UHGV virus genome: UHGV-0033546
Reading direction: 5' to 3' (one strand)
Length of the DNA stretch: 64,000 nucleotides
Source of the DNA: a virus
Shown here: positions 33,755 to 49,932 of the stretch, piece by piece
How positions within the stretch are numbered: the first letter of the stretch is position 1
Layout: every line of letters begins with the position of its first letter
Notes under the pieces: model-generated
Databases searched by the model: none
Told to the model about the DNA's origin: nothing
The model's input: the letters and a program-made list of their open reading frames with translations, nothing else
Made by a program: the position numbers and the translations under genes

Positions 33755-33859
33755 TTAAGTCGTTTATCGTTGGTTCATTATATACTGTTTCTTCATCAGT
33801 GTAAACCGGTTCTTCCGGCTCTGGCTCTACTGTTTCCCATCTAGCCGCCCACCAAGGTT

Positions 33860-34207: not shown

Positions 34208-34386
34208 TTAGAAATAGACTTTTCACCATTAGAATAATAAACTTCAAGTTTAGCACGGTTATTTTTAATTTGAATAACCTTGGCTGTCATCAAAGTTCCA
34301 TACCCATAATAAACTGCAACCTCATCACCTACATATACCGCGCTTCCGCGGTAGTCATGGATATAATCAGTTTCTTCGAGCATCAT
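34171..34386 (-). CDS. hypothetical protein
   Basis: 71-aa ORF(-). Confidence 0.45.
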   Translation of the reverse strand: MMLEETDYIHDYRGSAVYVGDEVAVYYGYGTLMTAKVIQIKNNRAKLEVYYSNGEKSISKWKYGDCIVKLG

Positions 34387-34646
34387 TTAAAGTATTCCCG
34401 CAATTGGTCAAATCCACCGATATGACTTCCATCAGGAGCAAATACCTGAGGCATCGTCAAACCGATTTGAGTATCACGACCTAGTTTGGTCAGAAGCTCA
34501 GCGATTTTCTCATCATCAAAAACACCTTTTTCTGGCATAATATTGATAAATTCAAACGGCTGTTTCTTCACGGTCAGAAGACGCTTTGCATTATCGCAAT
34601 ACACGCATTTATGGATGTTGCTATCATAACCATATACTTTAAACAT
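34383..34646 (-). CDS. nrdC: thioredoxin/glutaredoxin NrdC
   Basis: 87 aa; CVYC active site; matches recalled T4 NrdC. Confidence 0.8.
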   Translation of the reverse strand: MFKVYGYDSNIHKCVYCDNAKRLLTVKKQPFEFINIMPEKGVFDDEKIAELLTKLGRDTQIGLTMPQVFAPDGSHIGGFDQLREYFK

Positions 34647-34647
34647 A

Positions 34648-34890
34648 TTATTCCTTAATTCCTAGTACTTGTTTAAAAGTCTCATCGTAATCAAGACTTT
34701 GGCCTGTTTGTTCTTTATGTTTGTATATAATATCACTTACTTCTGATAGCATATTTTTATATGAACGAGTTAAAGCAGATTTAAGAACGCTGTATCTATC
34801 AGGAAATTTACCATGTTCATTATAATAAGCTATTGCTAATTCACGGACTGCCTTTTCAGCAGTCTCCATATATTCTTTACGCTTTGTCAT
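34648..34890 (-). CDS. hypothetical protein
   Basis: 80-aa ORF(-). Confidence 0.5.
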
Positions 34891-35194
34891 TTTCTTCTCG
34901 GTTAAATCGGTGTTTGCAATGACGGCATTTATAACGAAGAATACTAGTCTGCCAATGAATTAATTGAACCTGTTCAGTACCGCATTCAGGACAATTAGGA
35001 ACGTTTTTAGAAGCCCTTTCACGACGTTCAACCATAACCATAATAGCATCCCAGGCTGGAGGTTTAAAATCTAAATCATCACAACCATGAATCTTTCCAC
35101 GCATTTCCAGATCGTCTTCTTCACCCGCTATAATAATTTTAATTAGACTGGAATTACTTGAAGCTGCAATATCTTCTAATAGACGCTTTTTCAT
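34877..35194 (-). CDS. hypothetical zinc-ribbon protein
   Basis: 105 aa; CPECG...CRHCKH. Confidence 0.5.
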
Positions 35195-36117
35195 TTCAAT
35201 ACCTCAATAGCATTACGTAAACCATTTGCTTTGGTGGTTAAAGCCTTAAGAACTTTGGTATGCTCTTCAATTTGTTTTTCAACTTCAATCAAACGAGCAT
35301 TGAGATATTCGCGTTCTTCTTTCATAGTATCATTCCCATGATTGAATTTTGGCGTAGGTTTAAATTCGCTGGGGTCCTTTAACTTAATAACAAATTTAGT
35401 TTCAAACAGTGAAAGACCATAATTCGTATTATCATCAAAGGATTCAACTACATCCATATTAGATAATAACTCACGCAAATTATAAGCCAAAGAACTAATA
35501 GTTTCATTGTGTTTATTAGCTTCGCGCGGTTTCATATACGGAAGATTTTTATATATCTCGTGCGGAGCACAAACAATAATTGACAATTCAAATTGTCCAT
35601 TCTGGGATGATGGAGTGAATTTAGCAGTAACCCAGTCTTTTACATTCACATTAATAGTACGGTTATCACCATGACAAAACAGTCTACGAGAATGCTTAAA
35701 AAGCATATTAACGTTCTCATTAAATTCACTTGAAAACTCACTAGCGAATTTTTCTTTACTATTTTTAGAAAACCATTCTTCTAAATAAGTTCTTTTCACG
35801 TCATTAATAATATTAAATGTAACAACACTAGCATTTGATATATTAGTCTCAATGTAGCTCGGATACATAAATTTTTTAACATTATTAACAGCTATCACAG
35901 AAGATAGTAATCGGGAACGTTTGAACCACTCGAGCAAAGAACCAAGAGAATGTGAATACGCATTTTGTGTATCTTTACAAATATGGTTTTCCCATCCAAT
36001 ATAGTCTAAAAAATCACGAAGAATATTATTGATTACTGCTCTGTGTCCTATCTGATAATTACGATGTTTAGTAATAAGACTGTCAAAATAATCAATATAA
36101 TGTTTACGAGTTTTCAT
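35191..36117 (-). CDS. hypothetical protein, paralog family member 1 (C-terminal coiled coil)
   Basis: 308 aa; N-terminus MKTRKHY; heptad-rich C-terminus. Confidence 0.55.
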   Translation of the reverse strand: MKTRKHYIDYFDSLITKHRNYQIGHRAVINNILRDFLDYIGWENHICKDTQNAYSHSLGSLLEWFKRSRLLSSVIAVNNVKKFMYPSYIETNISNASVVTFNIINDVKRTYLEEWFSKNSKEKFASEFSSEFNENVNMLFKHSRRLFCHGDNRTINVNVKDWVTAKFTPSSQNGQFELSIIVCAPHEIYKNLPYMKPREANKHNETISSLAYNLRELLSNMDVVESFDDNTNYGLSLFETKFVIKLKDPSEFKPTPKFNHGNDTMKEEREYLNARLIEVEKQIEEHTKVLKALTTKANGLRNAIEVLK

Positions 36118-36169
36118 ATTCTTCTCACTTGGTTAATGATTTATGCTCCAAGCCATCCTTGGCTTTAAA

Positions 36170-37171
36170 TTACTTAATTAACTGTAAAGCTTGTTCAAGA
36201 CGATCCAGGCGATTAACAGATTCTTCCCAAATCCTTTTAGCCTGTTCATATTCTTTTTGCGCTTTATTAGAAATTTCTAGAACTTCTTTATAAGCTTTTT
36301 CTAGTGCAATAACTTCTGGACGAATTTCTACTGGTTCAGGCGAATCGTCAAGATTATCCATTAGTTCCTCAAGGGTAGTTTCTTCTTTAGGAGTATTCAC
36401 AATTTCATCACATTTTTGTTGGTAAATTTCTTTATCAGTCGGTGAATACGCACACTTTACTTCACGAAGACTAACTACAATTTTATATCCTTCCCAACCG
36501 CACATATTCTTAAAAGGATAAGTATGAATATTTTCTACTGTTTCCATACATCCAAAAGCTGTCTCTAATTGATGAGTTATAGTGCTAGCAATTGAGAAAA
36601 ATTTATTAATATTCTTTTGGTTAGCTTCTGGTGTAAAAAATTCATAATTCACAAAAATAGCTACTTTATTTTTATCAAGCTCGTATTCTTTTACGATAAT
36701 CATATCAGAAGCTAAAGGATGAATTTGACGATAATCGCCATAGCATAATTTAGAAGCGGATTTTATAATTTGCTTCTTGAAAAGTCTGAAATTACTAACC
36801 CAACGACGAGTAAAAATATTCTCAGGGTCTTCTTTATTATTAAGATGATAAGAATTAACATCACCGAACCAATTATATCCTACTACATTTTTAGTTCGTT
36901 TAATTTCTTTCCCAAATTTACCAAAAATATCCCGATTAACCAAATATGAAAGAAGACGAGACCCTTTAAAGGTTTCCTTAATATCATCTTTATCTGTATG
37001 ACTAGAAATTTTACGAACTTCATGAATAAATTTACTTGAAGAAACAATACTTACATCAGTATTATTGAGCCACTGATTGATAATAGAAAGAACACTATTC
37101 TGACTAGACATAGGTTTAACTTTATCATCAATAACGCTATTGAATGATTTGATATATTCGTTACGAGTCAT
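36170..37171 (-). CDS. hypothetical protein, paralog family member 2
   Basis: 333 aa from ATG 37171 (GAGGAG SD; MTRNEY...); shares QLxxAFxxM motif with member 3. Confidence 0.55.
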   Translation of the reverse strand: MTRNEYIKSFNSVIDDKVKPMSSQNSVLSIINQWLNNTDVSIVSSSKFIHEVRKISSHTDKDDIKETFKGSRLLSYLVNRDIFGKFGKEIKRTKNVVGYNWFGDVNSYHLNNKEDPENIFTRRWVSNFRLFKKQIIKSASKLCYGDYRQIHPLASDMIIVKEYELDKNKVAIFVNYEFFTPEANQKNINKFFSIASTITHQLETAFGCMETVENIHTYPFKNMCGWEGYKIVVSLREVKCAYSPTDKEIYQQKCDEIVNTPKEETTLEELMDNLDDSPEPVEIRPEVIALEKAYKEVLEISNKAQKEYEQAKRIWEESVNRLDRLEQALQLIK

Positions 37172-37228
37172 ATTAATCTCCTCAGTAGAAAGTAAGAACA
37201 TTATACCACATCCTTGTGGCAAAGTAAA

Positions 37229-38233
37229 CTAGTTTAGTGCATTTAGTGCATTGTTCAGTTTAGAACGTTGTTTTGTCAGATTTTGAACCCTTGACTGTGC
37301 TTGTTCTAACACCTTTTCAGCTTCTAACATTTCATTAGTTGCTTTAACTAATTCATCATCTACTGCTTTAAGAGACTTCTCAATCGCATCGGCGTGCCAT
37401 TTTTCTACAGGTTTAAAATTTGAATTTTCAGTAGGAAGAAAACTCACTTTATTAAGTTTACATGCATCTATGTTACTTGAACTATACATCCAGCATTTAG
37501 GATCGTTTGATGAACAGTTAGTTTGGGGTTCAGGTTTTTTCTCTTGCGGGACTTCGTCCTTTCTCAAAAAATCGTATTTAAATGAAACGATCATATCAAG
37601 TTCATATGTTGTTGTGTCTAATTTAAATCGCTCAAAACGAGGTAAAATCTTAGACTGAACAGCGGCAACAACATCCATATACTTAAATGCTTCTGTCAAC
37701 TGTGATTTAAGGCATTCACAAATTGAAAGAGAATTTTTTGTATTAGGTTTAAAGCTAATTCGTGCAGTTCTATTATTTTCTTTTAATGGTCTTACTTCCA
37801 TCTGAAGAGTATAACCATCAAATTTCAGATTCTTTAAGTTAATATCAGAACCTTTTAATCGACTAGCTGTGGACAAAATTTGTTTTAGTTGTGTACGGAA
37901 TAGAGCAATAAATCTCCATTCAATACGATAATGATTTGGATTGAAAAATCCAGATGATAAATCAACCTTACTCTGACCAACACCTTGAACAAATAGAGGA
38001 TTTTTATAATCAATAGTTTTACAGAAATCGGTGAGCTGCTCACGAGCAGTCATTTGTGTAATATACCCCGCTTTACTAAAATGACGTAACCATTCACTGC
38101 TATTCATATATTTAAAGTGAATATCATGATTAACTTTATCAGGGTCTAAATTATTTTGACACAAAAATGTCATAACATCACGAGTATAGCTGGCATTACG
38201 AACCATATCTTCAATTTGAGAACGAGTTTTCAT
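37229..38233 (-). CDS. hypothetical protein, paralog family member 3
   Basis: 334 aa; MKTRSQ... N-terminus; coiled-coil C-terminus. Confidence 0.55.
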   Translation of the reverse strand: MKTRSQIEDMVRNASYTRDVMTFLCQNNLDPDKVNHDIHFKYMNSSEWLRHFSKAGYITQMTAREQLTDFCKTIDYKNPLFVQGVGQSKVDLSSGFFNPNHYRIEWRFIALFRTQLKQILSTASRLKGSDINLKNLKFDGYTLQMEVRPLKENNRTARISFKPNTKNSLSICECLKSQLTEAFKYMDVVAAVQSKILPRFERFKLDTTTYELDMIVSFKYDFLRKDEVPQEKKPEPQTNCSSNDPKCWMYSSSNIDACKLNKVSFLPTENSNFKPVEKWHADAIEKSLKAVDDELVKATNEMLEAEKVLEQAQSRVQNLTKQRSKLNNALNALN

Positions 38234-38241
38234 GGTGTTCC

Positions 38242-38847
38242 TTAAGATTTAAGTAAATCAACAATTTTAATTAACTTTTCACGCTCAGATTTAGCTTTAC
38301 TACTCAATCCAGATAGTCTGAAAATTTCATCATCATATTGTTGAATAGAAATATTCAGTTCTTCAATCTGTTTATTAAAATAATCAATTTGTTCAGAGTG
38401 TTTTTCGTTACTACGAACTGGTACGGGTTTCGTAGGCAATTTAGTTGAACTAGATTCATCCGGGCGATAAATTAAAATACAACTTGAACCAATTGGGCAT
38501 TTTGCACCAGATGAATATTCCAATGTTCCAGATTCTTTTAAAACTTCAAAAGCTAAACAGAGATGATGCCCCATATTAACATAATCTGTAGAGCGAGCTC
38601 TGATGTAATAATCATCGCCACGAATACTAAATTTAAAGCATTTAAGGTCTTCTGTATTATTGGTCTTAAAAATCATTTGCTTATCTAGACCTTTAGCTAA
38701 TCGAGCGCCTAATGCTAATAATCGTCGCTGATTTTCCCACAAATCCGCAATCATTTGATCGAATGACAATTTCGGCATCAGTCGACCATAAAGATCATAG
38801 CCTTTATTATAATTACGAAGGATTTCACTCGCGTTAATACGAGACAA
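38242..38847 (-). CDS. hypothetical protein, paralog family member 4 (shorter)
   Basis: 201 aa; MSRINASE... N-terminus; N-terminal 70 nt overlap upstream ORF. Confidence 0.5.
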   Translation of the reverse strand: MSRINASEILRNYNKGYDLYGRLMPKLSFDQMIADLWENQRRLLALGARLAKGLDKQMIFKTNNTEDLKCFKFSIRGDDYYIRARSTDYVNMGHHLCLAFEVLKESGTLEYSSGAKCPIGSSCILIYRPDESSSTKLPTKPVPVRSNEKHSEQIDYFNKQIEELNISIQQYDDEIFRLSGLSSKAKSEREKLIKIVDLLKS

Positions 38848-39128
38848 TGCTCCAATTTATTAAGGGCTTTCATAATGCGATTAGATAAACCCATTCCAGA
38901 CCCATTTGTTCGCTGCAAATGTTTTTCTAATCCAAATCCAATATCAACTTTAAACTTATCTAAAATTTCTGCATGAACATCTCTGTCAATAACATTCAAA
39001 TCCAAAGTTGGGTTAAATCTATGAAAAAATTTATCTGGCTCTCCACGACGAAGTACAGTCCATTCATTCAATTTTTTATTAACTAAAGATTTAATTACTG
39101 CATTGACATTATTAATCACTACTGGCAT
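38778..39128 (-). CDS. hypothetical protein
   Basis: 116 aa from ATG 39128 (GAGGAAA SD). Confidence 0.45.
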   Translation of the reverse strand: MPVVINNVNAVIKSLVNKKLNEWTVLRRGEPDKFFHRFNPTLDLNVIDRDVHAEILDKFKVDIGFGLEKHLQRTNGSGMGLSNRIMKALNKLEHCLVLTRVKSFVIIIKAMIFMVD

Positions 39129-39135
39129 ATTTTCC

Positions 39136-39543
39136 TCACTCAATTTCAATTTTACTAAATACATAGAATATGATTGAACAGACTACATAAGCGCCACACA
39201 CAGATTGAACTAATACCATTCCAAAGAACCAAACAATATTATCAAACAGTGTCTGTTTTACGTCGAAAGGACGTAAACTTACAGTAATATTATCGCCTTT
39301 TTCTATTGATGAATACATCTCTGGTGAAATATATTCGCTAAATCTATAACCGTCTTTTAGTTCATATATGGCAATAAACGATAAACTAGACCCCTTTCCT
39401 TGTGTTCCTGTAATGGTATTAACTACAGTAACATCATAATCTTTATAATGCATATAATCATTAATAGCATAATAACCATATGCAATCGCTATACATAAAC
39501 AACATATCAATAAATTCAATCTTTTAATTATCAACTGTTTCAT
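39136..39543 (-). CDS. hypothetical membrane protein
   Basis: 135 aa with N- and C-terminal TM segments. Confidence 0.5.
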   Translation of the reverse strand: MKQLIIKRLNLLICCLCIAIAYGYYAINDYMHYKDYDVTVVNTITGTQGKGSSLSFIAIYELKDGYRFSEYISPEMYSSIEKGDNITVSLRPFDVKQTLFDNIVWFFGMVLVQSVCGAYVVCSIIFYVFSKIEIE

Positions 39544-39598
39544 AATAATCTCAATTAAAAGGGCTTAGAACCATTATACCATCCTTGGTATAAAGCGG

Positions 39599-40126
39599 TT
39601 ATGCGAGTACCGTCTTTAACCGTTCTTCAAACTTCCGAAGAGTATTTTGGCGTTCAGCTCTTTGCTTTTTGTAAGTTTCAATACGCTCTGAAATGAGAGT
39701 GTATCGTTCATTTACTGATTCTTTCATAAAATCAGGAATTTCACGAGAAGCTTTAATCTCGTCAAATTTATCAATAACAGCTTGCTCTTCAGCAATTAAA
39801 TTATCATACATTAAAATATCTTTCTTGATGAACTCAATATCTTCTTGAGTTACACGAGATAATTTAGATGCTTTATCCTTTTTGTACTGTTCGTTAGTAT
39901 CACGAGACCAGTGTAATGTACGATTTTTATTCGTATTTTTGTAAATTTCTACAATACCAATCTCATCAATAATAACGATCCAATTCCAACGTGATTTGTA
40001 AATTTGTCCTCCATCAACAGTGATTTCACCTCCGATTGAGATGTCATTAAAGAACTTGCTTTGTGCTTCAGATTTAAATTTACCATCATTGTAATTTACC
40101 AAGTTGAAAATATCTTTAGCGTTCAT
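39599..40126 (-). CDS. hypothetical protein with C-terminal coiled coil
   Basis: 175-aa ORF(-) just downstream of early promoter. Confidence 0.5.
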   Translation of the reverse strand: MNAKDIFNLVNYNDGKFKSEAQSKFFNDISIGGEITVDGGQIYKSRWNWIVIIDEIGIVEIYKNTNKNRTLHWSRDTNEQYKKDKASKLSRVTQEDIEFIKKDILMYDNLIAEEQAVIDKFDEIKASREIPDFMKESVNERYTLISERIETYKKQRAERQNTLRKFEERLKTVLA

Positions 40127-40154
40127 TTTCTGTTCCTCCGTAGTTGATAGTTGT

Positions 40155-40184
40155 ATAGTACCACAGAGGAACAGTCTTGTAAAC
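40155..40184 (-). promoter_or_regulatory. T4-type early promoter
   Basis: minus strand GTTTACA, 18 nt, TGG-TACTAT. Confidence 0.55.
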
Positions 40185-40186
40185 CA

Positions 40187-40501
40187 CTAAAAGAAACTTC
40201 TTTCACAATTTTTTCCACTGAACCAGGCGCTCACTGCTTTCTTAGTCTCAGGAGCAGTGTTATCCATAAACCATTCAAAGGCAGCCTTTTTATGATTCTG
40301 GAGGGCTTCTCGGGCTTTAATCTGCTCACGGTCTATTAACACTAACACATGAGCCTTTCTTGTCACCATGGGCTTCTTATGATTTTTTGAATACTCCCAG
40401 TCATTTGTCCATCGCATTGTCGTTGCGAACTGAAATACTGCTTCTTTAATTTTAGTTTCGTAAATTTCACGAGCCTTTGAGTATAACATCACTACCTCCA
40501 T
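40187..40501 (-). CDS. hypothetical protein
   Basis: 104-aa ORF(-). Confidence 0.5.
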   Translation of the reverse strand: MEVVMLYSKAREIYETKIKEAVFQFATTMRWTNDWEYSKNHKKPMVTRKAHVLVLIDREQIKAREALQNHKKAAFEWFMDNTAPETKKAVSAWFSGKNCERSFF

Positions 40502-40590
40502 TCACCAGTTTAATTCTAGTCATCTTTTTAATGGCAGTCCATATAATCTATTTCTGAACTGCCTTTTTGTCATAGAAGTCCTCTTATGAA

Positions 40591-41577
40591 TTATTTCAGA
40601 AGAGTAACCTCAGCGATTTCTTCCCAACCGTTTTTGTCGGTCATAATAAAGTCAGCAAGATAAAGAGCAGTACGCAGTGAAACATTGCGTAAACGATTAA
40701 CATTAACTTTCATCCATGATAATGCTTTATAAGTTTCTTCATCAGAAAGACCGCGCTTTTGCATCATGTCAGTTGAAAGAATAACATCTTCAACCCTGAC
40801 CATAATTTCTTCATTAGTGTGAACACCCAAATCTAAATAAACCGAGCGGGACACTAATGCTTGTAAATGTGGAGCAAGTTTAGTACCACGGTCTAATTCG
40901 CGGTCAATGTCAACGTTTGTGATAAAAACAATCGTTCCTTTAAATTCAAACTCACGCTCAATGCCTTTTTCTTCTAAGTAAGAAGACGCAGTGCTCCAGC
41001 AGACTTTACGGGTCTCTCCAGTGTCCAGAGCAGCTTTTAGAAGATTAAGAATGTCCATATCAGAGAAAACATCCACATCATCAATCAAAAGGACAGAATT
41101 CTCTTCACGATTATTCCAAAGCTGCTCATAAAGACCAATACCAGAGATTTTACCATTAATGCTTTTATATTCAATGTATCCAATATCATTTGCTTTATTT
41201 AAAGCTTTATCTAAAGAATACGTTTTACCAATACCTGCCGCTCCTGAGATAATTAATGAACGAATATTTCCGTTAATAATACCATTCGTCATCATTCCCA
41301 TAACATTAAATCTTTTATTAATGCGGGTTTTCATATCTTCATATGATTCTTTAACTTCTTCAACTTTTACACCATCATATGAAATATCTGATTTGTAAAC
41401 CCAAACACCGCGACGCTTACCGTCAATTTCAACAAAAACTTTACCATCTCCTTGTGCATCTACCGGAGCATTATCTGGGAACCATTCGCCTAAGAGCTCA
41501 AAAGTTCCAGAGATTTCTTTACCGAAGTAGATACCCTTATTGATAGTTACAGTTTTCATTTTATTCTCCAATTTCAC
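40591..41577 (-). CDS. P-loop (AAA+-like) ATPase
   Basis: 328 aa; Walker A GAAGIGKT, Walker B VLLIDDVD after a 100-aa N-terminal domain. Confidence 0.65.
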   Translation of the reverse strand: MKLENKMKTVTINKGIYFGKEISGTFELLGEWFPDNAPVDAQGDGKVFVEIDGKRRGVWVYKSDISYDGVKVEEVKESYEDMKTRINKRFNVMGMMTNGIINGNIRSLIISGAAGIGKTYSLDKALNKANDIGYIEYKSINGKISGIGLYEQLWNNREENSVLLIDDVDVFSDMDILNLLKAALDTGETRKVCWSTASSYLEEKGIEREFEFKGTIVFITNVDIDRELDRGTKLAPHLQALVSRSVYLDLGVHTNEEIMVRVEDVILSTDMMQKRGLSDEETYKALSWMKVNVNRLRNVSLRTALYLADFIMTDKNGWEEIAEVTLLK

Positions 41578-41595
41578 ATTTGTTTTGATAGGGTA

Positions 41596-41625
41596 ATAGT
41601 ATCACACTACTACCCTACTGTAAAC
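41596..41625 (-). promoter_or_regulatory. T4-type early promoter
   Basis: minus strand GTTTACA, 18 nt, TACTAT. Confidence 0.55.
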
Positions 41626-41628
41626 AAT

Positions 41629-41892
41629 TTATTTTAATGTTTGCCAAATTTTTACTGCTTCGCGACGAGATACTTCTACAGCTCCAAGTTCTACGGCTTT
41701 TTGGCGTCGCCGAGCATGTAAGTCATAATGTTTAATGCGTTTATCTTGAAACCAAGAACGTTTCATTCCTATTGCTTCTGCCATTTTATGAAGCTCTTCA
41801 ATATCTCCATCAGTGAACATATGACAATTTTTAGTTGGATGACCGCGAAGTTTCCATCCATGATTCATTAAAACATCTACGTAAACTGTCAT
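41629..41892 (-). CDS. small DUF4031-like protein
   Basis: 87 aa; pattern HxFTDGDxEELHxxAxxIGxxRSWFQ...HYDL recalled for DUF4031 (unverified). Confidence 0.5.
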   Translation of the reverse strand: MTVYVDVLMNHGWKLRGHPTKNCHMFTDGDIEELHKMAEAIGMKRSWFQDKRIKHYDLHARRRQKAVELGAVEVSRREAVKIWQTLK

Positions 41893-42074
41893 TGATTCTG
41901 CTCCAAATATGTTTCTATAATTTTCTGAGCGAGATAAACTGCGTTATCTTCAGTTGCATCTTCTAAGAAACTTTCAAAACACTCTGAAATTTCTTCTGTG
42001 TCAATCAACTTTTTTACTTCAATTGGTGTAATTTTCATTTTGTTTTCCGTTTATGTGTTTGTTTTGATAGTTGT

Positions 42075-42104
42075 ATAGTACTACAAAGCTCTATGCTTGT
42101 AAAC
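42075..42104 (-). promoter_or_regulatory. T4-type early promoter
   Basis: minus strand GTTTACA, 18 nt, TACTAT. Confidence 0.55.
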
Positions 42105-42128
42105 AGTTTTGTGAAAAATTTTTGAAAT

Positions 42129-42152
42129 AAAAAAGGGAGCCCGAAGGCTCCC
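42129..42152 (-). terminator. intrinsic terminator (CUUCGG hairpin + T-run)
   Basis: GGGAGCC-UUCG-GGCUCCC followed by T6 on minus strand. Confidence 0.6.
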
Positions 42153-42154
42153 TA

Positions 42155-43168
42155 TCATTTATAATAACTTCGATGGTTTTCAAGATAGACCTTCTCAAGG
42201 AAGTCATCCCAGAAACTCATGTCTACTTTTTGCTGCATACCGTTCTTAGAAGCTTCAGTAGATGCTGCTTCTACTTGATCGACCACATCTTCCAAAAACT
42301 CTTGGACTGTTTTAAATGGATGTTTACCCAACTTCACGTCGAGAATAAATGGAGCGTCTTGAAGTGGATAGACTAAGTCACCAGTTTTGTAAATTTCCAA
42401 TAGTTGAAGTCCACCACGACAAGCATGACTCAGAGCTTTCCAATCAATGCCCTCATTCGCTTCAGCCTTACGAGCACGTTCACCGTATTCAGCATCTAGT
42501 TTGTTCAAAGATTGCTTAAGCTCAATAAGAGAAAGTGTTGTCTGATATTTGCGACCCAACACAGTGTAGAACGTTTGTGGACCTGTTTTCTCATGATTAT
42601 GGAATACCCATTCACAAAATTCGTTCTCTGGAAGACGATGCTTAATATCTTCAATTTTAACGCGACGTTGTCCTTGTGTTCCATCTTCTCGGTAGACATT
42701 CCGTTGATCAGGAATTTGATTAATTACTTTCAACACATCACGTAATGCAGCCAAACGAGAACCTTTAACACCATATTTAGAAGCTTGCTTACGAACATAT
42801 CCTAAATAGGACTTCATGTTGGTTGTATAAAAACGAGAACGGTTGTCTTGAATAAACTTCCACACATCAGGCAAATCAGATTTAACCACTAGTTCAGGTG
42901 GAGTGTGAAGCATATCTAATGCGACAGTTTCGCCATCTGCTGCTAATTTAAAGAAATACTTAAGACTGTATAGTTCATGGTCAATATCATCTTTAGTGTT
43001 TTTAGATGATGTATTGTTAGTGTTTTTACTCATGTGCTCTTTGACATTTCCGATAAGAATATCACGAGCAGGAGGAACAAAAATTTCTTTAAAATCTACA
43101 TCAGATTCTGGGGTAGAAGTTCCATAAAGATGACTACCAAAATAGCTTTTCATTACTGTTTTCATCAT
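42155..43168 (-). CDS. predicted nucleotidyltransferase (Pol-beta superfamily)
   Basis: 337 aa; N-terminal GSHLYGTSTPESDVDF (GS...DxD) at residues 11-26. Confidence 0.6.
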   Translation of the reverse strand: MMKTVMKSYFGSHLYGTSTPESDVDFKEIFVPPARDILIGNVKEHMSKNTNNTSSKNTKDDIDHELYSLKYFFKLAADGETVALDMLHTPPELVVKSDLPDVWKFIQDNRSRFYTTNMKSYLGYVRKQASKYGVKGSRLAALRDVLKVINQIPDQRNVYREDGTQGQRRVKIEDIKHRLPENEFCEWVFHNHEKTGPQTFYTVLGRKYQTTLSLIELKQSLNKLDAEYGERARKAEANEGIDWKALSHACRGGLQLLEIYKTGDLVYPLQDAPFILDVKLGKHPFKTVQEFLEDVVDQVEAASTEASKNGMQQKVDMSFWDDFLEKVYLENHRSYYK

Positions 43169-43626
43169 TCAGCCTTATATTCAATAACAGGACATACTTT
43201 AGCTTTACGAGCTTTTAAAAATTCGACGATAATCGATTTCTTGGGTTGAATAGGAGGTAAACCTTTAGCCTTCCTATCAATATTTTCTACATGTAAAGCA
43301 TAATCCTTTTTCCATTTATAATCTTTATATTTTTCATGTAGTTGCGCAGGAATAACAAATGAACCTATAATAAGTAAAACAATCAAAAGAGCAAATATAA
43401 ATGCTGATGGAAGAAGAGTCCATAAACTACCAAAAATAAGCCAACGCTGTAGGCTTTCTGCACAAATAATTGTTAACCCTACGAGTATAGCACATCCAAA
43501 AATAGAAACGAAAAATGTAGGGATAACAATAGACCAAAAGTATGCACATAGTGTCTTAGGTCGTTTCCATTCGTCGTTAAACAGTTTGAATAATTTATAA
43601 TGCCAAGAGTTTTCATTAATAATCAT
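43165..43626 (-). CDS. hypothetical membrane protein
   Basis: 153 aa; three hydrophobic segments; coupled to downstream gene. Confidence 0.5.
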   Translation of the reverse strand: MIINENSWHYKLFKLFNDEWKRPKTLCAYFWSIVIPTFFVSIFGCAILVGLTIICAESLQRWLIFGSLWTLLPSAFIFALLIVLLIIGSFVIPAQLHEKYKDYKWKKDYALHVENIDRKAKGLPPIQPKKSIIVEFLKARKAKVCPVIEYKAE

Positions 43627-43628
43627 AA

Positions 43629-44150
43629 TTATCCTTTCATTGAAGGTGTAACAGTTGTTAAATACTTAATCATAGCTTCAGCTTCTGATTTTGATAATGA
43701 AATTTCTCCATTGTTTTGACGAATAGAAATAAAATCCGGATGACGGTCACCACCAGCTTTTAAAACACACATATAAGTATCAACTTCATCTTCAATATCT
43801 GAAATGATTGAAGCAGTTCCACACGAATGTGGTTTTTGATAAATCAATACAGCTTTTCTTCCACCGTTTGACTGTTCATAAACTTTTAACACATCAAACA
43901 AATCACTTCTTTTATCAATAGCTAAGATGTTGTTTTCATCTTCAATGTTAAATCCTTCGGATACTTCATAAAGTGTCACCCATAAATCGCCAATATCAAT
44001 AACAGCGTTCACTTTTCCATGACTTTCAAGAGCATGACAAATTTTCTTGATTTCGTCATAACTCATTTTAATAATATCATCTCCTTGAATAAGAAAGATG
44101 TCATTTTTAAATTCAACACGAATTAAACCACTTCCACTTGAAATAAACAT
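43629..44150 (-). CDS. hypothetical protein (paralog of 44157..44708)
   Basis: 173 aa; shared IGDLWV / YLTTVTPSM motifs. Confidence 0.5.
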   Translation of the reverse strand: MFISSGSGLIRVEFKNDIFLIQGDDIIKMSYDEIKKICHALESHGKVNAVIDIGDLWVTLYEVSEGFNIEDENNILAIDKRSDLFDVLKVYEQSNGGRKAVLIYQKPHSCGTASIISDIEDEVDTYMCVLKAGGDRHPDFISIRQNNGEISLSKSEAEAMIKYLTTVTPSMKG

Positions 44151-44156
44151 ATTTCC

Positions 44157-44708
44157 TCACTTTGAAATCATAGTTGGAATGACAGAATCAAGATAAGTCT
44201 TTAGCGCAATAGCTTCGTCTTTGGTAAATGTGACAATATGCACTCGAGAATCATCAATTTGACGAACAAGTACAACATCACCATCTTCATAAGAAGTCTT
44301 GACATCCAAAGTCGTAGTATAGTTTGCAGCTACTGGATTAATAATGCTAGCACTGCGGTCTTTAGCCCATTGAAGTTTAGCCTTTTCGGGTGTTTCGACT
44401 GTTTCAGATTCCAAGAATTCTTTCACCTTGGCAACGAATGTTTCCCAATTGTTGATAGAAATACATGCAAGTTCAGTTTCAATATTACCACCGTGAGAGC
44501 CACGATAAAAACGAACTTGGAGGTCGCCTGTAATAGTTATACTGGTAACTCCTGAGGGAGCATAAGATAAAATCGCAGCCAGTTCCATAGGAAGAATAAT
44601 AATATTATCGTTTCCCTGCGTCAGAACGTATACATTACCACGTTTTTCGATAACCAGGTCACCGAATAAATTAGTTGTTTCAATTACAGCTTTCATATTA
44701 TTCACCAA
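44157..44708 (-). CDS. hypothetical protein (paralog of 43629..44150)
   Basis: 183 aa; TGDLQV / YLDSVIPTM motifs. Confidence 0.5.
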   Translation of the reverse strand: MVNNMKAVIETTNLFGDLVIEKRGNVYVLTQGNDNIIILPMELAAILSYAPSGVTSITITGDLQVRFYRGSHGGNIETELACISINNWETFVAKVKEFLESETVETPEKAKLQWAKDRSASIINPVAANYTTTLDVKTSYEDGDVVLVRQIDDSRVHIVTFTKDEAIALKTYLDSVIPTMISK

Positions 44709-44889
44709 TTAAAGTCTCAATTAATTCTCTTAATTTAAAAGCTTGCTCATTTGTCATTACATACTCCTCTGAATCATATCAATAATGTTGTTCACCAAAT
44801 TATAAGTAAACATTGGGTAATTATATTGAATCATCACATACACAACAAGCAAAACTTTCATTCTCTTCTCCTTGGCAGTTGACAAGATT

Positions 44890-44919
44890 ACTATACCATA
44901 ACCTTGCCAACTTGTAAAC
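44890..44919 (-). promoter_or_regulatory. T4-type early promoter
   Basis: minus strand GTTTACA, 18 nt, TGG-TATAGT. Confidence 0.55.
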
Positions 44920-44921
44920 CA

Positions 44922-45095
44922 TTAAATGACGTTTTCGATAAAATTCTGAAGCTTTGTGTGAGCATCAACCATGATTTTCATTTCTTCCTTTGCGAAAGCT
45001 GTACCTCTTTCCCGAGCAGAATACTCATAGTCAGAAACTGCATTAGCATATTCTTCAATTAGCTTCATTAAAAACATCTGCTTTTCAGTTTTCAT
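44922..45095 (-). CDS. hypothetical small protein (57 aa)
   Basis: ORF(-) below cut-off; ATG overlaps upstream gene end. Confidence 0.3.
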   Translation of the reverse strand: MKTEKQMFLMKLIEEYANAVSDYEYSARERGTAFAKEEMKIMVDAHTKLQNFIENVI

Positions 45096-45279
45096 TATTC
45101 CACCTAATCATTTCAAGATATTGAACTAACTTAGCTTTGGATTTATCCAAATCCTTTTTAGCAGCTTCTATACCGTCGTATGAATATCCTTCACAATGCT
45201 CAACTGCTAATTGGTATGAATCTATTTCAATATCACGTGCTAATTTAATGATTTTTTCAAACTGTTCACGTGTCAGCAT
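45085..45279 (-). CDS. hypothetical protein
   Basis: 64-aa ORF(-). Confidence 0.45.
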   Translation of the reverse strand: MLTREQFEKIIKLARDIEIDSYQLAVEHCEGYSYDGIEAAKKDLDKSKAKLVQYLEMIRWNNEN

Positions 45280-45281
45280 AC

Positions 45282-45521
45282 TTAAACTCTCGTATTATGA
45301 TCGATAATTTCATCAAGAAACATATCTAAAGCTTCTACAGCATTATCAACTTTATCTTCAAGTTCATCAATACCTTTATTTGCAATACCTGACGAAAACC
45401 AAGCAAAGTCGCTAAGTTCCTCATCTGCTTTACGAATTAAAGCTACCAATTCTTTAATCTTATCCGCTTGTTCAATGCTAATCATTATTCCACCACGTAT
45501 GAAAGAGAGAATATTGCACAC
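45282..45521 (-). CDS. hypothetical protein
   Basis: 79-aa ORF(-). Confidence 0.45.
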
Positions 45522-45718
45522 GCCATATGTGTTGCAGCTTCATCACACATATCATAACGTTTCTTAAGAAGTTCTACAAGCTCTTCACTAGTAACTTCAT
45601 CCATGTCGACGAAAAAATCACCATTAATGATGACGTAGATATTTCCTTCTTGATTGAGTGCTTCAATTTTCATGATGTTCTCCTCTTTATCTGATAGTTG
45701 TATAGTATCACAGCTCAA
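45485..45718 (-). CDS. hypothetical protein
   Basis: 77-aa ORF(-) downstream of early promoter. Confidence 0.45.
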
Positions 45719-45731
45719 ATGGAAAGTAAAC
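45702..45731 (-). promoter_or_regulatory. T4-type early promoter
   Basis: minus strand GTTTACT, 18 nt, TACTAT; same module as at 4682..4747. Confidence 0.55.
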
Positions 45732-45741
45732 CGGTAAAATG

Positions 45742-45763
45742 AAAAAAGTCTCCCGAAGGAGAC
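45742..45763 (-). terminator. intrinsic terminator (CUUCGG hairpin + T-run)
   Basis: GUCUCC-UUCG-GGAGAC followed by T6 on minus strand. Confidence 0.6.
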
Positions 45764-45768
45764 TAATG

Positions 45769-46155
45769 TTATTCGAGGGAAAGAAGATATTTGCTCTGGT
45801 AAAACATCCCAGTAATATCATCTATCGTGCTTTGAATGGCTGGAGGCATTTCTTTATAAATGCTGTTAGATTGGTCTAGTATGTGATCAATCATTTTAAT
45901 TGTGTCGGTAGGAAGTTTACTGGCATCTGGAATAGAAGGCGTGTATTTTCTACCAGAATACCCCAAATATTGCTCACCAAATTTGTCAATCAAATCTGGC
46001 AACTCAGAAAAAATAAAATCGTATGCTTTGTGTCTAGCATAACTTTTAGTTTCAAAATGTGCAGAATGAAAATAAGCTTGTGCAGCCATTAATAAACCTG
46101 AGTATTCATCTGCCTTCGAAGGTTTTCCACTCTGTGAAAAGTCGCTGAATTTCAT
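45769..46155 (-). CDS. hypothetical protein
   Basis: 128-aa ORF(-). Confidence 0.5.
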
Positions 46156-46445
46156 TCAGTCTCCAATTTAATGTTCATAATTCTAGCGTATGATTGTGCC
46201 ATCTCCGCGCCTCGTTCTATACATTCAAAATCGGAAGAGCACGGGTCATTTTTATAAGTCGTTCTCATAAAACTATAGAACTGTTCAGATGATTCTACGC
46301 TTTTATTTTCAAAAAGCATATAAACATGTCTAATACCAGATTCCATAAATTTATCAAAATGAGGATCGACATTCGCTTCAATTGGTGGAGATAAAGCAAA
46401 CGCTAATCCTAGCATGGCAAATAGTGCCGTTGCTTTTAAGGCCAT
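46152..46445 (-). CDS. rI: lysis inhibition regulator RI
   Basis: 97 aa with N-terminal signal-anchor; size and position next to tk as T4 rI. Confidence 0.7.
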   Translation of the reverse strand: MALKATALFAMLGLAFALSPPIEANVDPHFDKFMESGIRHVYMLFENKSVESSEQFYSFMRTTYKNDPCSSDFECIERGAEMAQSYARIMNIKLETE

Positions 46446-46457
46446 AAAGGCCTCCTA

Positions 46458-46670
46458 TCATTTTTGTCCTGTATTTACTTTATGCCGATGTACGGCCTTA
46501 ACTTTATCAAGGTATTTTTCAAAATTTCGCAATCTGGTATAGTCTGCCGGAGATTGGTTGAGTGATACTTCTCGACGCAAAGCTGAAATAACATTTCCAA
46601 CTTCCCTACGAATTTCATCTAATTGAAGCACAGTAAGATTGCGAAGTTGCTTTTCAGTTAATTGTAGCAT
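46458..46670 (-). CDS. hypothetical protein
   Basis: 70-aa ORF(-). Confidence 0.45.
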
Positions 46671-46712
46671 ATATACCCCTTTAGTTAGATAAACCTATTT
46701 ATAACTTTTGCA

Positions 46713-47294
46713 CTAACCGAGCTTTTTAGTTAATTCATTCCAATGTTTTCTACATAAAGAAACATAAATTTCATCACCAATACAGATTTGATTACCTTCT
46801 TTAACAGGTGTTCCATCTTCCATTAATCGAGCTGTCATAATCGCTTTTTTACCACAATGACAAACTGCCTTTAGTTCAATAAGTTTATCTGCAATCGCTA
46901 AAAGTTCTTTAGAACCTTCGAATAATTTTCCAGCGAAATCAGTTCTTAATCCATAAGCCATAACAGGAACATTATATGTATCAACAATTCGGCTTAATTG
47001 GTGCACCTGTTCAGTTTTTAAAAACTGAGCTTCATCTACAAATACGCAATGAATATCTTTTTGTGCTTCAGCCCATTTATAGAACTCGAAAATATCCATA
47101 TCATCCGTAATAATATTCGCTTCCTGTTTAATTCCAATGCGAGAAACGACTTCACAAACAGAATCGCGAGTATCAATAGCAGGCTTAAGAACTAATACAC
47201 CCATTCCGCGTTCTTTATAATTATGCGCAGCAGTCAAAAGAGAAGCAGATTTTCCAGCATTCATTGCTGCATAAGTAAAAATTAAACTCGCCAT
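46713..47294 (-). CDS. tk: thymidine kinase
   Basis: 193 aa; P-loop AMNAGKS; C-terminal zinc motif CHCGKK...C..C. Confidence 0.85.
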   Translation of the reverse strand: MASLIFTYAAMNAGKSASLLTAAHNYKERGMGVLVLKPAIDTRDSVCEVVSRIGIKQEANIITDDMDIFEFYKWAEAQKDIHCVFVDEAQFLKTEQVHQLSRIVDTYNVPVMAYGLRTDFAGKLFEGSKELLAIADKLIELKAVCHCGKKAIMTARLMEDGTPVKEGNQICIGDEIYVSLCRKHWNELTKKLG

Positions 47295-47303
47295 ATCACC
47301 TTC

Positions 47304-47489
47304 TTAAAGCGTATTCACATAAGCTATTAATTCGTTTTCTTTCTTATCAAACCGACCAGCAAATTCTTCCTGCTGTTCGGGAGATATCGGGCCATATTCA
47401 TCATAAAAGGCGTTTGCTTCTGTATGCTCATCTAGAAGTTCATGGATAAGCTCAAACAATTTATCTTTTTGTTCTTTACTTAGGCTCAT
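47304..47489 (-). CDS. hypothetical protein
   Basis: 61-aa acidic ORF(-). Confidence 0.45.
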   Translation of the reverse strand: MSLSKEQKDKLFELIHELLDEHTEANAFYDEYGPISPEQQEEFAGRFDKKENELIAYVNTL

Positions 47490-47659
47490 ATATTAATTTC
47501 CAGAAGTTTTAAAATAATTCGCTTTTGCTTAAATATTTCCATAGTTAAATGATCAGTATCTTTTTGACCAATTCCAATGGCAAAACCTTTATTAGCAGCG
47601 AGTTCAATTAAATTATCAAGTTCATGTAACACTTCGTATTGTAACTCAGAGCTATTCAT
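47486..47659 (-). CDS. hypothetical small protein (57 aa)
   Basis: ATGA overlaps at both ends with neighbours. Confidence 0.3.
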   Translation of the reverse strand: MNSSELQYEVLHELDNLIELAANKGFAIGIGQKDTDHLTMEIFKQKRIILKLLEINI

Positions 47660-47883
47660 TTCGGTTTACCTTCTTTAACGAAATCAGGATAAGGATAAAA
47701 TCCTGAATAAAATCCTTCGCCTTTATGATTGATGCATCCTTTATTAGAACAATAGCACCAATAATCAAAATCACAAGCCATTTCATCATTACATAAAGCA
47801 AATACAACTGGCCATTCGCACTTTTCGCAGTGGGCATTTTTAAGAATACTAGTTTGGCTCATAACCATGTAACCTTTAAGCAA
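47656..47883 (-). CDS. hypothetical Cys-rich protein
   Basis: 75 aa; CEKCEW...C..C.C...C. Confidence 0.45.
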   Translation of the reverse strand: MLKGYMVMSQTSILKNAHCEKCEWPVVFALCNDEMACDFDYWCYCSNKGCINHKGEGFYSGFYPYPDFVKEGKPK

Positions 47884-48071
47884 TATTCTTCTACGTGTTG
47901 TTTACGACCTTTCTTATCAATAAAGGTATATTCAACGAATGTTCCAATGTAGTCTTTATCTACATCATGTGGACTATTAATTGGGCATTTAGTACGGCAA
48001 ATGCGTTCCCATTGACGAATAATTACTGCTTTGTTTTTAGGATCAAACGGATGCGGGTAATGTGCTTTCAT
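47859..48071 (-). CDS. hypothetical protein
   Basis: 70-aa ORF(-). Confidence 0.45.
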   Translation of the reverse strand: MKAHYPHPFDPKNKAVIIRQWERICRTKCPINSPHDVDKDYIGTFVEYTFIDKKGRKQHVEEYCLKVTWL

Positions 48072-48522
48072 AATCCACCACTATTAAATCAATATCAGGA
48101 GTAAACATGTCGATTAATTTAGAAACCTTATCCCAATCACCGCCAGCAATACCACAACCTATACGTGGAATGTAAATTACTGGTTTAAACAAAAGGGTTT
48201 CTGCCTGTAGATTTAATTCTATCATACAGTTTACTAAAGCACCATAATCAAGATTAGAACCCGGTTCGTATTGCGTATACAAATTATAGCACATACTAAA
48301 TCCTGTAGGATTATGTTTAAAAACAATAGACATGTCGCCTAATTTATCACGAGAACCGTACTCGGTAGTGGTTTTATCTATTTCTAAAATTTTGGGATAG
48401 GCTCTTGCTAATTGACCCGCTACGCCAGAGCCCATTGTATGGAAGCAATTGCACCCGTGCGCAATAATATTACCTCCAAGAAAGAGGGCGACAATATCGC
48501 CCTTGATATATTTTACAATCAT
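48043..48522 (-). CDS. macro-domain protein (predicted ADP-ribose binding/hydrolase)
   Basis: 159 aa; YIKGDIVALF..GNIIAHGCNC...MGSGVAGQL and IPRIGCGIAGGDW resemble macro-domain Gly-rich loops. Confidence 0.6.
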   Translation of the reverse strand: MIVKYIKGDIVALFLGGNIIAHGCNCFHTMGSGVAGQLARAYPKILEIDKTTTEYGSRDKLGDMSIVFKHNPTGFSMCYNLYTQYEPGSNLDYGALVNCMIELNLQAETLLFKPVIYIPRIGCGIAGGDWDKVSKLIDMFTPDIDLIVVDYESTLPASV

Positions 48523-48866
48523 CTAGTACTCAATCCTCGATTATAAGAATCTACTAAACGGTCAACCATTGAACGACAAGCGGCTTTGTCTTTTTCCTCC
48601 GCGACTGAGCATTCTAAGGTATTCCATTTTTTAGCATATCGTTTTAATAATGTATCGTTTTTGTATCTGCTTGATTTATCTCTTTCTCCGTCTTTATATG
48701 CATATATTAATTTCTGCGCAAATTCAGCTTGACATGCTTTATTTTTCCCACAATAATCTGCCGCAGTGCGGTTTACATACTCTCTAATTTCAGTATATGA
48801 TGTATCTGCTGACGCAGAAGCAGAAATTGAAATTAATCCTATACATAAAACCAAAATTTTAGTCAT
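48519..48866 (-). CDS. secreted hypothetical protein
   Basis: 115 aa; signal peptide MTKILVLCIGLISISASASA. Confidence 0.5.
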   Translation of the reverse strand: MTKILVLCIGLISISASASADTSYTEIREYVNRTAADYCGKNKACQAEFAQKLIYAYKDGERDKSSRYKNDTLLKRYAKKWNTLECSVAEEKDKAACRSMVDRLVDSYNRGLSTR

Positions 48867-49404
48867 TTACTATTTCCAAAAGTTTATTATTTTTAAGGTA
48901 ATTAGCCTTTTCTAGGACTTCAGAAGCATATTTAGAACCTGCTTTAACATTCCATCCCGAATTATAAGAGGATATTGCTTTTCTTATATCGCCCTTATGT
49001 ATATTTAACCAATAAGAAAGTTCAATGTACGCCCAGGAAGCTGAATTGGACCGTTTATTCAACATTCTTTTTATTTCAGCATCGGTCATATTATAACCAA
49101 GTTCCTTAACTCTTGCTCGCATAGTTGGCAAATAATTTTGGAACATTCCATAGGCATGATGCTTTGGTTTAGATTTTAAATTAACTCCGCCAGAGCTTTC
49201 TTGCCATAAAATGGCTGCCATTATATGACCTAATCCACTCTTATGAACATTTTGGTGTGTTTTATATTTTCCATCCTTAGAAAACTGTTCCCCGAATTGA
49301 TACGCGTAACGCATGTTATCGAGTTGGACATTACTGAAAGTATGCTCGGAGCTATGTGCCATCATAGAAATGGCCAATAGACCAGCGAGTAGTGCTTTTC
49401 TCAT
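48859..49404 (-). CDS. secreted lysozyme-like (SLT-type) protein
   Basis: 181 aa; signal peptide; WQESSGG catalytic-Glu motif. Confidence 0.55.
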   Translation of the reverse strand: MRKALLAGLLAISMMAHSSEHTFSNVQLDNMRYAYQFGEQFSKDGKYKTHQNVHKSGLGHIMAAILWQESSGGVNLKSKPKHHAYGMFQNYLPTMRARVKELGYNMTDAEIKRMLNKRSNSASWAYIELSYWLNIHKGDIRKAISSYNSGWNVKAGSKYASEVLEKANYLKNNKLLEIVND

Positions 49405-49411
49405 GTTTACC

Positions 49412-49873
49412 TCATTGAGTTTTAATTACTGCTTTAGAAGCCTTTCCTGGTAAACGACGACTGTTGATAATTGCCATCCTACATTGAAGTGACGGGTCTT
49501 TGAACTTCGCATTAGGTTTACAAACCGTAAATCCAAGCCAAAGATTTCCATCTGTGATTTCTAAACGTCCAGGACGATATTCAACTCCATCAATAAAATC
49601 CTCGTCAATATCAGGACGCGGAGGCATACTCAGGAATTCATTAACTTCTAAAACATGGTCTTTTATTTTATGGAATAATTCAAAAACATATGTCTCATCA
49701 ATCTCCCGTTGAATTGCACGATCAAGAAGATGTTGAGAATATTTTAGATGAAACGATGAGACTCCTGCTGCTTTTGATGCCTCACGAATCTCATTGTTAA
49801 TTTGACGAAACTCCGACTCAAAGTGACGACGAAGCTTATTTCGACGGATAAAAACTTCTGTGTTGATAGTCAT
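49412..49873 (-). CDS. regB: endoribonuclease RegB
   Basis: 153 aa matching recalled T4 RegB. Confidence 0.85.
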   Translation of the reverse strand: MTINTEVFIRRNKLRRHFESEFRQINNEIREASKAAGVSSFHLKYSQHLLDRAIQREIDETYVFELFHKIKDHVLEVNEFLSMPPRPDIDEDFIDGVEYRPGRLEITDGNLWLGFTVCKPNAKFKDPSLQCRMAIINSRRLPGKASKAVIKTQ

Positions 49874-49899
49874 GTTATTCTCCTCTTAACTGATAGGAA

Positions 49900-49929
49900 A
49901 ATTATACCACAGTCAAGAGGAAAAGTAAA
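49900..49929 (-). promoter_or_regulatory. T4-type early promoter
   Basis: minus strand GTTTACT, 18 nt, TGG-TATAAT upstream of regB. Confidence 0.6.
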
Positions 49930-49932
49930 CAG

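Follow-up and report, generated by a model that had tools for sequence, protein, structure and literature searches.

The window analysed here, a 64,000-nt stretch of UHGV virus genome UHGV-0033546, belongs to a T4-like phage (Tequatrovirus): 753 phage records match it, and the best matches are 96% identical over 4.2 kb. We focused on positions 40,591 to 43,168, which a first-pass annotation had described as a three-gene cluster (P-loop ATPase, DUF4031-like protein and Pol-beta-type nucleotidyltransferase), with each gene behind its own early promoter, and had provisionally read as a nucleotide-signalling or RNA/DNA-modifying module. The locus is the junction between T4 nrdC.11 and nrdC.10, within the hyperplastic region that extends from nrdC to tk. 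All three open reading frames (ORFs) lie on the minus strand where they had been placed, but the cluster has a fourth gene, orf49 (41889..42038), that had been overlooked. The relationship to T4, previously left undecided, is one of orthology: the ATPase is 99% identical to T4 NrdC.10, and the nucleotidyltransferase is 95% identical to T4 NrdC.11 (NP_049709). The genes of the region are all on the minus strand, and in T4 and annotated relatives they follow the order nrdC.9, nrdC.10, (DUF4031), nrdC.11, mobD or its substitutes, rI and tk, where parentheses mark the facultative member. The features of the locus are as follows.

45702..45731, minus strand: early promoter GTTTACT...TACTAT, the nearest one upstream of nrdC.11 (pattern scan)
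42155..43165, minus strand: nrdC.11, RlaP-family Pol-beta nucleotidyltransferase of 336 amino acids; a second possible ATG, at 43168, overlaps the stop codon of the preceding gene
42124..42153 (hairpin 42134..42153), minus strand: intrinsic terminator with an 8-bp GC-rich stem, UUCG loop and U-run; identical in T4
42075..42104, minus strand: left early promoter GTTTACA-N17-TACTAT, predicted to serve orf49 and DUF4031 (pattern scan)
42058..42070, minus strand: left 13-bp direct repeat CTATCAAAACAAA, exact copy, cassette boundary
41889..42038, minus strand: orf49, acidic protein of 49 amino acids (phrog_6888, E 1.4e-30)
41629..41892, minus strand: DUF4031 protein of 87 amino acids, a stand-alone domain (Pfam PF13223)
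41596..41625, minus strand: right early promoter GTTTACA-N17-TACTAT, predicted to serve nrdC.10; inside a 14-bp hairpin spanning about 41588..41618
41579..41591, minus strand: right 13-bp direct repeat CTATCAAAACAAA, exact copy
40591..41559, minus strand: nrdC.10, AAA+ ATPase of 322 amino acids, with an ATG start and a GGAG Shine-Dalgarno sequence

A mobile two-gene cassette in the nrdC.11-nrdC.10 junction

In T4, nrdC.11 and nrdC.10 are 114 bp apart and the orf49-DUF4031 pair is absent. In the window, the repeat CTATCAAAACAAA follows each of the two promoters that flank this pair; no further exact copy occurs in the 64 kb, and the two are separated by 479 bp. The single T4 junction is a chimera of the two: its promoter and spacer match the left copy of the window, its Shine-Dalgarno region matches the right copy, and the switch falls at the shared repeat. 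Across 22 T4-like loci, orf49 and DUF4031 always occur together and occupy one of two sites: the nrdC.11-nrdC.10 junction or a position some 2 kb downstream of nrdC.10. The cassette DNA of Enterobacter-type phages is 88-95% identical to that of the window, compared to 50-77% for the flanking DNA (NrdC.10 and NrdC.11 of these phages are 68-74% identical to the window proteins), and this excess of cassette over flank identity indicates recent lateral transfer. Thus, orf49 and DUF4031 form a mobile cassette, missing from T4, that is probably shuffled by exchange through a repeated early-promoter segment.

This type of exchange is known from promoter-early stem-loops (PeSLs), which T4-type phages carry as mobile regulatory cassettes (Arbiol et al. 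2010, PMC2839356; Comeau et al. 2014, PMC4122927). The window promoters fit the published PST/T4 PeSL promoter consensus, TTTACW-N17-TAYWAT (PMC4122927). Moreover, the left copy (42153..42075) has the characteristic terminator stem-loop followed by a consensus early promoter, and the junction lies in a hyperplastic region, shows an indel between close relatives (T4 versus the window) and has its crossover inside the repeated promoter segment. The right copy differs in that it has no separate GC-rich terminator. Instead, its promoter lies within a 14-bp hairpin (UAGGGUAGUAGUGU/ACACUAUUACCCUA-like) located directly past the DUF4031 stop codon (folding free energy -17.8 kcal/mol, z-score -4.7), which overlaps the promoter spacer and the -10 box. 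There are hints that such a hairpin may be a conserved structural element of these promoter cassettes. Comeau et al. do not mention the nrdC junction ('nrdC' has 0 occurrences in PMC4122927).

Inverted repeats with differing spacer sequence were noted elsewhere, by inspection only: GGTATGAG/CTCATACC in locus L005 (5240-5340) and GGTCTGTAG/CTATAGACC in locus L008 (5240-5600). The latter, a Tequatrovirus contig, carries an additional small ORF, followed by a hairpin and a CTATCAAA-type element, inserted between DUF4031 and nrdC.10 (L008:5262-5590), which indicates that the junction accepts serial insertions.

Within the cassette, the orf49 stop codon overlaps the DUF4031 start codon (ATGA), an arrangement expected to couple their translation. 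In T4-like loci orf49 is always directly upstream of DUF4031, and its products are 38-98% identical with isoelectric points of about 4.1-4.3. We also considered orf49 as a general partner of DUF4031 proteins and rejected this idea, since orf49 was found in T4-like cassettes only.

Transcription units at the junction

A scan of the window with the early-promoter pattern GTTTAC-N18-TANNAT returned 17 matches, all on the minus strand, compared to 0.28 expected. GC skew is negative across the whole window (1..64000), which, with the all-minus promoters, fits one long leftward early region.

The two early promoters reported previously, at 41596..41625 and 42075..42104, were recovered at exactly these positions as GTTTACA-N17-TACTAT matches. 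The reported terminator was recovered as well, as a hairpin (42134..42153) with a UUCG loop and a U-run (-17.3 kcal/mol, z-score -3.5); a search of Rfam over it returned only a sub-threshold L20-leader match (28 bits versus 58.7), which we took as chance. In contrast, the proposal that each gene stands behind its own early promoter did not hold: there are two promoters for four genes, and nrdC.11 has no promoter motif of its own. Pattern scans for early and MotA-type promoters found none between nrdC.11 and 45702..45731. For this reason, nrdC.11 is probably the last gene of a longer, polycistronic early unit that starts at 45702..45731 and would close at the strong terminator. The promoter at 42075..42104 would then serve orf49 and DUF4031, expressed as an accessory 'moron', and the one at 41596..41625 would serve nrdC.10. 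An alignment with T4 shows that a terminator and a promoter separate nrdC.11 from nrdC.10 in both genomes.

Together, these features make it probable that the locus consists of three separate early transcription units, with a 479-bp two-gene cassette that entered the nrdC.11-nrdC.10 junction by recombination through the repeated early-promoter segment.

NrdC.11 belongs to the RlaP family

NrdC.11 scores 44.5 bits against the Pfam RlaP family PF10127 (cutoff 23, E 2e-11), and all 120 of its listed homologues carry this domain. It also matches the phrog_388 nucleotidyltransferases (E 8e-136). The nucleotidyltransferase motif noted by the first-pass annotation is present, although its spacing is GS-x10-DxD rather than GS-x9-DxD. 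Across eight homologues, G10-S11, D22 and D24 are invariant and position 84 is D, or E in a Vibrio phage. Loss of the catalytic Asp/Glu residues in homologues, which the first-pass annotation had named as counting against its own proposal, was looked for and not seen: the carboxylates are kept down to 31% identity. NrdC.11 thus resembles RlaP in its GS...DxD...D/E catalytic motif and in a score above the gathering threshold. It differs from the bacterial members after which the family was named in having no adjacent RNA ligase or RtcB gene. NCBIfam returned only sub-threshold Hda and MntA motif matches, and sequence and profile searches of the PDB gave nothing usable for NrdC.11, NrdC.10 or DUF4031.

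A preprint by Carruthers, Fatma and Huang (December 2025; 10.64898/2025.12.29.696909) describes two Pseudomonas RlaPs (PfRlaP of P. fluorescens and PaRlaP of P. aeruginosa) that add one or two nucleoside monophosphates to RNA 3'-OH ends. The assayed enzymes favour damaged RNA, can rescue tRNAs lacking a nucleotide and, among Escherichia coli macromolecules, accept only RNA. In the same study, RlaP is put forward as a means of counteracting ribotoxins that excise nucleotides, such as RloC; the authors also point to T4 as the original example of tRNA repair by a phage, and they name T4NrdC.11 as a member of RlaP cluster 5, with function unknown (10.64898/2025.12.29.696909). By homology with the assayed enzymes, the most likely activity of NrdC.11 is the addition of one or two nucleotides at RNA 3'-OH ends. 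In this way it could help the phage Pnkp/RNA-ligase pathway to restore tRNAs that have been shortened by host anticodon nucleases.

Two observations concern the T4 gene itself. T4 nrdC.11 (L003:13436-14446), translated from NC_000866, has an X at residue 107 (PDXWK), which points to an ambiguous base in the reference record. Of the blocks that were lost spontaneously, the main text of a paper on T4 genome reduction names only nrdC.11-mobD.3.

NrdC.10 is a AAA+ ATPase found near recombination and replication genes

The Walker A (GAAGIGKT) and Walker B (LLIDDVD) motifs reported for the ATPase are both present. The ORF is real, but its reported length of 328 amino acids, from GTG 41577, includes an upstream extension. 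Translation almost certainly starts at ATG 41559, giving 322 amino acids, because this codon is preceded by a GGAG Shine-Dalgarno sequence and yields an N-terminus shared with T4 and 34 homologues. The protein (phrog_1250) opens with a beta domain (residues 1-61), followed by a linker helix (73-96) and the AAA+ core (101-243). The core, of the alpha-beta-alpha type, contains a pre-sensor-1 insertion, and a C-terminal helical lid (249-319) completes the protein. Besides the Walker motifs and lid, it has the sensor-1 Asn and, as arginine finger, the SRS (SRC-like) arginine of AAA+ proteins. Its nearest solved folds are MoxR-type NorQ/CbbQ, NtrC-type sigma54 activators and DnaA/ORC/Cdc6/RFC. No assignment could be made among the MoxR, NtrC, DnaA/ORC/Cdc6 and RFC clamp-loader clades, since there was neither a family hidden Markov model above threshold nor a clearly best structural match.

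NrdC.10 is common and well conserved: database searches gave 1007 homologues, and those of Escherichia, Acinetobacter and Aeromonas phages share about 55-65% identity. Divergent homologues neighbour UvsY, the UvsW helicase, UvsX, gp32 and NrdAB, and are often encoded directly before UvsW. This context suggests that NrdC.10 belongs with DNA recombination and replication functions. Given its placement among such genes in distant T4-like phages, this unclassified ring-type ATPase, conserved across Straboviridae independently of RlaP, would most likely remodel a nucleoprotein or DNA-metabolism complex rather than partner the nucleotidyltransferase.

Among the distant relatives, marine T4-like contigs (L099-L140) encode full-length homologues of 31-38% identity between UvsY and a UvsW-type helicase (for example L130:4508-5269, with UvsW at 7328-8785). 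Homologues in jumbo phages (121Q, KM507819; fHe-Yen9-04, LR596615) align from about residue 75 onward and lack the N-terminal beta domain. Compared to window positions 40591-40620, the T4 reference (L003, NC_000866, 12344-12380) has one extra base near the 3' end of nrdC.10 (GCTACGGG versus GCTG-AGG), which shifts the frame of the final residues. Since the window protein and all 34 aligned homologues end in ...AEVTLLK, the C-terminus of the T4 reference protein represents either a strain mutation or a sequencing error.

The DUF4031 protein

The DUF4031-like label of the first-pass annotation was borne out by a match to PF13223 (76.7 bits, cutoff 25.6, E 1.6e-21), and RefSeq records already carry the annotation 'DUF4031 domain-containing protein'. 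Residues D6, H24, Q49, H55-Y56-D57 and G70 are invariant in 43 DUF4031 sequences. The invariance of the D/H/Q/HYD set hints at a small enzyme, or at a catalytic or metal site. Its predicted structure is confident (mean predicted local distance difference test score, pLDDT, 93.8), and a Foldseek search with this model gave no significant match.

An exhaustive profile search returned 7,338 DUF4031 clusters at 50% identity, nearly all of 86-206 amino acids; no second Pfam domain was found in the ten longest proteins (161-206 amino acids). DUF4031 has no constant neighbour across 70 viral loci outside the T4-like phages. Our literature searches found nothing on the function of DUF4031 or PF13223. 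One interpretation is that DUF4031 represents a novel type of small enzyme or of effector that binds a ligand, which T4-like phages shuttle between genera on promoter cassettes with a dedicated acidic 49-residue partner; it would act for example in counter-defence or host takeover, independently of NrdC.10 and NrdC.11. We regard this as speculative and unlikely. The family itself is large, almost always takes the form of a stand-alone domain of about 90 amino acids, and is without a significant solved structural relative.

DUF5131 (phage Gp37/Gp68, PF07505) lies near DUF4031 in 8 of the 70 viral loci and in 7 of 12 mycobacterial loci (L014, L026, L031:3397-4491, L155:1462-2736 and L157:6651-8816 among them), sometimes overlapping it. 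The mycobacterial loci came from a contig scan with an actinobacterial sub-alignment of DUF4031 and represent prophage-like contexts only. Their DUF4031 block also contains a 721-residue protein with an ADP-ribosyltransferase domain; with these neighbours, it looks prophage-derived.

Linkage of NrdC.10 and NrdC.11, and alternative explanations

To assess linkage, we assembled 69 diverse loci with NrdC.10 relatives and sought NrdC.11 within 10 kb by tblastn. In all nine loci with at least 66% identity, nrdC.11 is immediately upstream of nrdC.10; in the 60 divergent loci, NrdC.11 was not detected within 10 kb in any. Conversely, the Pseudotevenvirus Margaery has NrdC.11 and no NrdC.10 within 12 kb. 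Of 50,697 phage records, 1312 contain NrdC.10, 1518 NrdC.11 and 325 DUF4031, and the genus counts for NrdC.10 and NrdC.11 are discordant (149 versus 286 in Klebsiella phages, 121 versus 59 in Vibrio phages). A 2006 comparison of T4-like phages recorded nrdC.10 in 3 of 6 genomes and COG3541 domain matches for "5 of 6 nrdC.11 orthologs". Adjacency is confined to T-even-like, Karam-like and Acinetobacter-phage loci.

These data bear on the proposal that the AAA+ ATPase works together with the nucleotidyltransferase, and perhaps also with DUF4031, as one functional module, for example a nucleotide-signalling or nucleic-acid-modifying counter-defence system in which the ATPase loads, remodels or regulates the nucleotidyltransferase. 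We consider this very unlikely. The terminator between the two genes, the 60 divergent loci without NrdC.11, the occurrence of NrdC.11 alone in Margaery and the discordant genus counts indicate that the pairing looks like an inherited gene order in one clade rather than a module. The terminator is strong and is accompanied by a separate promoter, also in T4; the junction accommodates a foreign cassette and, in L008, one more ORF; and the 2006 comparison has nrdC.10 in only half of its genomes. The resemblance to CBASS (cyclic oligonucleotide-based antiphage signalling system), in which a CD-NTase is combined with Trip13/HORMA, is superficial and consists of a gene for a Pol-beta-fold nucleotidyltransferase that adjoins one for an AAA+ ATPase. 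Here the nucleotidyltransferase is of the RlaP type and not of the CD-NTase type, genes for HORMA proteins and effectors are absent, the ATPase and nucleotidyltransferase genes lie in separate transcription units, and they are not co-inherited outside one clade. PADLOC gave no match for any of the four proteins, and the match of NrdC.10 to Trip13 was no better than that of dozens of other AAA+ proteins. A CBASS-like module was rejected on the basis of the PADLOC result, the RlaP assignment and the terminator. In addition, bacterial RlaPs associate with RNA ligases and not with AAA+ ATPases (10.64898/2025.12.29.696909). The broader idea of an RNA- or DNA-modifying function in counter-defence fared better: the nucleotidyltransferase does belong to an RNA-modifying family, whose members have been suggested to act in counter-defence by repairing tRNA.

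Several points nevertheless count against the reading that we prefer, namely independent transcription units with an RNA-repair role for NrdC.11. Very divergent RlaPs could have escaped the tblastn test. The examined loci of T-even-like, Karam-like and Acinetobacter phages all have nrdC.11 directly before nrdC.10, even at 54-68% protein identity, and this constancy could reflect selection for linkage rather than simple inheritance; cooperation between the two proteins specific to this clade still strikes us as highly improbable. In T4-like phages DUF4031 is always within about 2 kb of nrdC.10. The alignment of NrdC.11 to PF10127 is limited to profile positions 23-142 of 249, its N-terminal half, and the C-terminal half of the protein falls outside the coverage of the model. 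No RNA ligase is annotated within 18 kb around T4 nrdC.11 or in two close relatives. T4 NrdC.11 falls in a different sequence similarity network cluster (5) from the assayed enzymes (1a), so its activity could differ (10.64898/2025.12.29.696909). Finally, our searches of the literature on nrdC.10, nrdC.11 and PF10127 found no functional study beyond the RlaP preprint, and no experimental study of T4 NrdC.10, T4 NrdC.11 or any DUF4031 protein.

Some of these points lend themselves to other explanations. NrdC.11 might act outside RNA repair, by nucleotidylylating a protein or small molecule (as MntA and kanamycin nucleotidyltransferase do), by tailing host or phage RNAs for decay or by synthesizing a signalling nucleotide. 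Consistent with this, the match to the RlaP model is confined to its N-terminal nucleotidyltransferase half, a weak match at the motif level links it to the MntA adenylyltransferase (E 0.06), T4 NrdC.11 falls outside the network cluster of the assayed enzymes and is described in the preprint as being of unknown function, and no RNA ligase gene adjoins it. However, its RlaP score exceeds the Pfam gathering threshold, assayed RlaPs take only RNA among the E. coli macromolecules, T4 is the founding case of phage tRNA repair, and nrdC.11 does not adjoin a gene for a HEPN or toxin partner; on balance, we judge a role outside RNA repair to be unlikely. The cassette could also be functionally tied to NrdC.10, with DUF4031 and orf49 serving for example as regulator, adaptor or substrate-generating enzyme, and such a tie would account for its constant position near nrdC.10. 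In all 19 DUF4031-bearing T4-like loci, the DUF4031 gene either immediately precedes nrdC.10 or follows it within about 2 kb, and with no terminator between DUF4031 and nrdC.10, read-through co-transcription is possible. Yet DUF4031 occurs in about a quarter as many phage records as NrdC.10 (325 versus 1312), no NrdC.10-like ATPase is among the recurrent neighbours of DUF4031 in the 70 viral loci outside T4-like phages or the 12 mycobacterial ones, and the nrdC-tk region is a known indel hot spot in which proximity may only reflect the available PeSL sites. We therefore find such a tie quite unlikely, somewhat more so than a non-repair role for NrdC.11.

Neighbouring genes and annotation

The mobD homing-endonuclease gene that lies beside nrdC.11 in T4 is replaced in the window by genes for a predicted membrane protein of 153 amino acids (43165..43626) and a 173-residue ORF (43629..44150), both on the minus strand. 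The latter and the mobD.1-like ORF beside it (44157..44708) are distant paralogues (28% identity, E 4e-9). In many GenBank and RefSeq records, nrdC.4-nrdC.11, including the ATPase and the nucleotidyltransferase, are labelled 'thioredoxin', and mobD.1 or mobD.4 is labelled 'molybdopterin-guanine dinucleotide biosynthesis protein MobD'. Both labels have evidently been propagated from the gene names.

Implications

The first-pass description of this locus was largely correct yet incomplete, and is partly confirmed; its interpretation as a functional three-gene cluster is unsupported, since orf49 and DUF4031 are a facultative mobile cassette and a terminator and promoter part nrdC.11 from nrdC.10. 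The components are catalogued T4 genes together with a known type of mobile cassette, and their novelty is low. The practical value of the analysis is thus corrective: the apparent trio results from modular shuffling in a hyperplastic region, and we advise against following it up as a defence-like operon. At the same time, the junction provides a clean, sequence-resolved case of promoter-mediated cassette exchange. What remains are three separate questions of interest, namely what part NrdC.11 may play in RNA repair, what NrdC.10 acts on and what DUF4031 does biochemically. With regard to the first, NrdC.11 may supply the nucleotide-restoring step that would allow T4 Pnkp and Rnl1 to counter nucleotide-excising anticodon nucleases such as RloC, an idea already put forward in the RlaP preprint.

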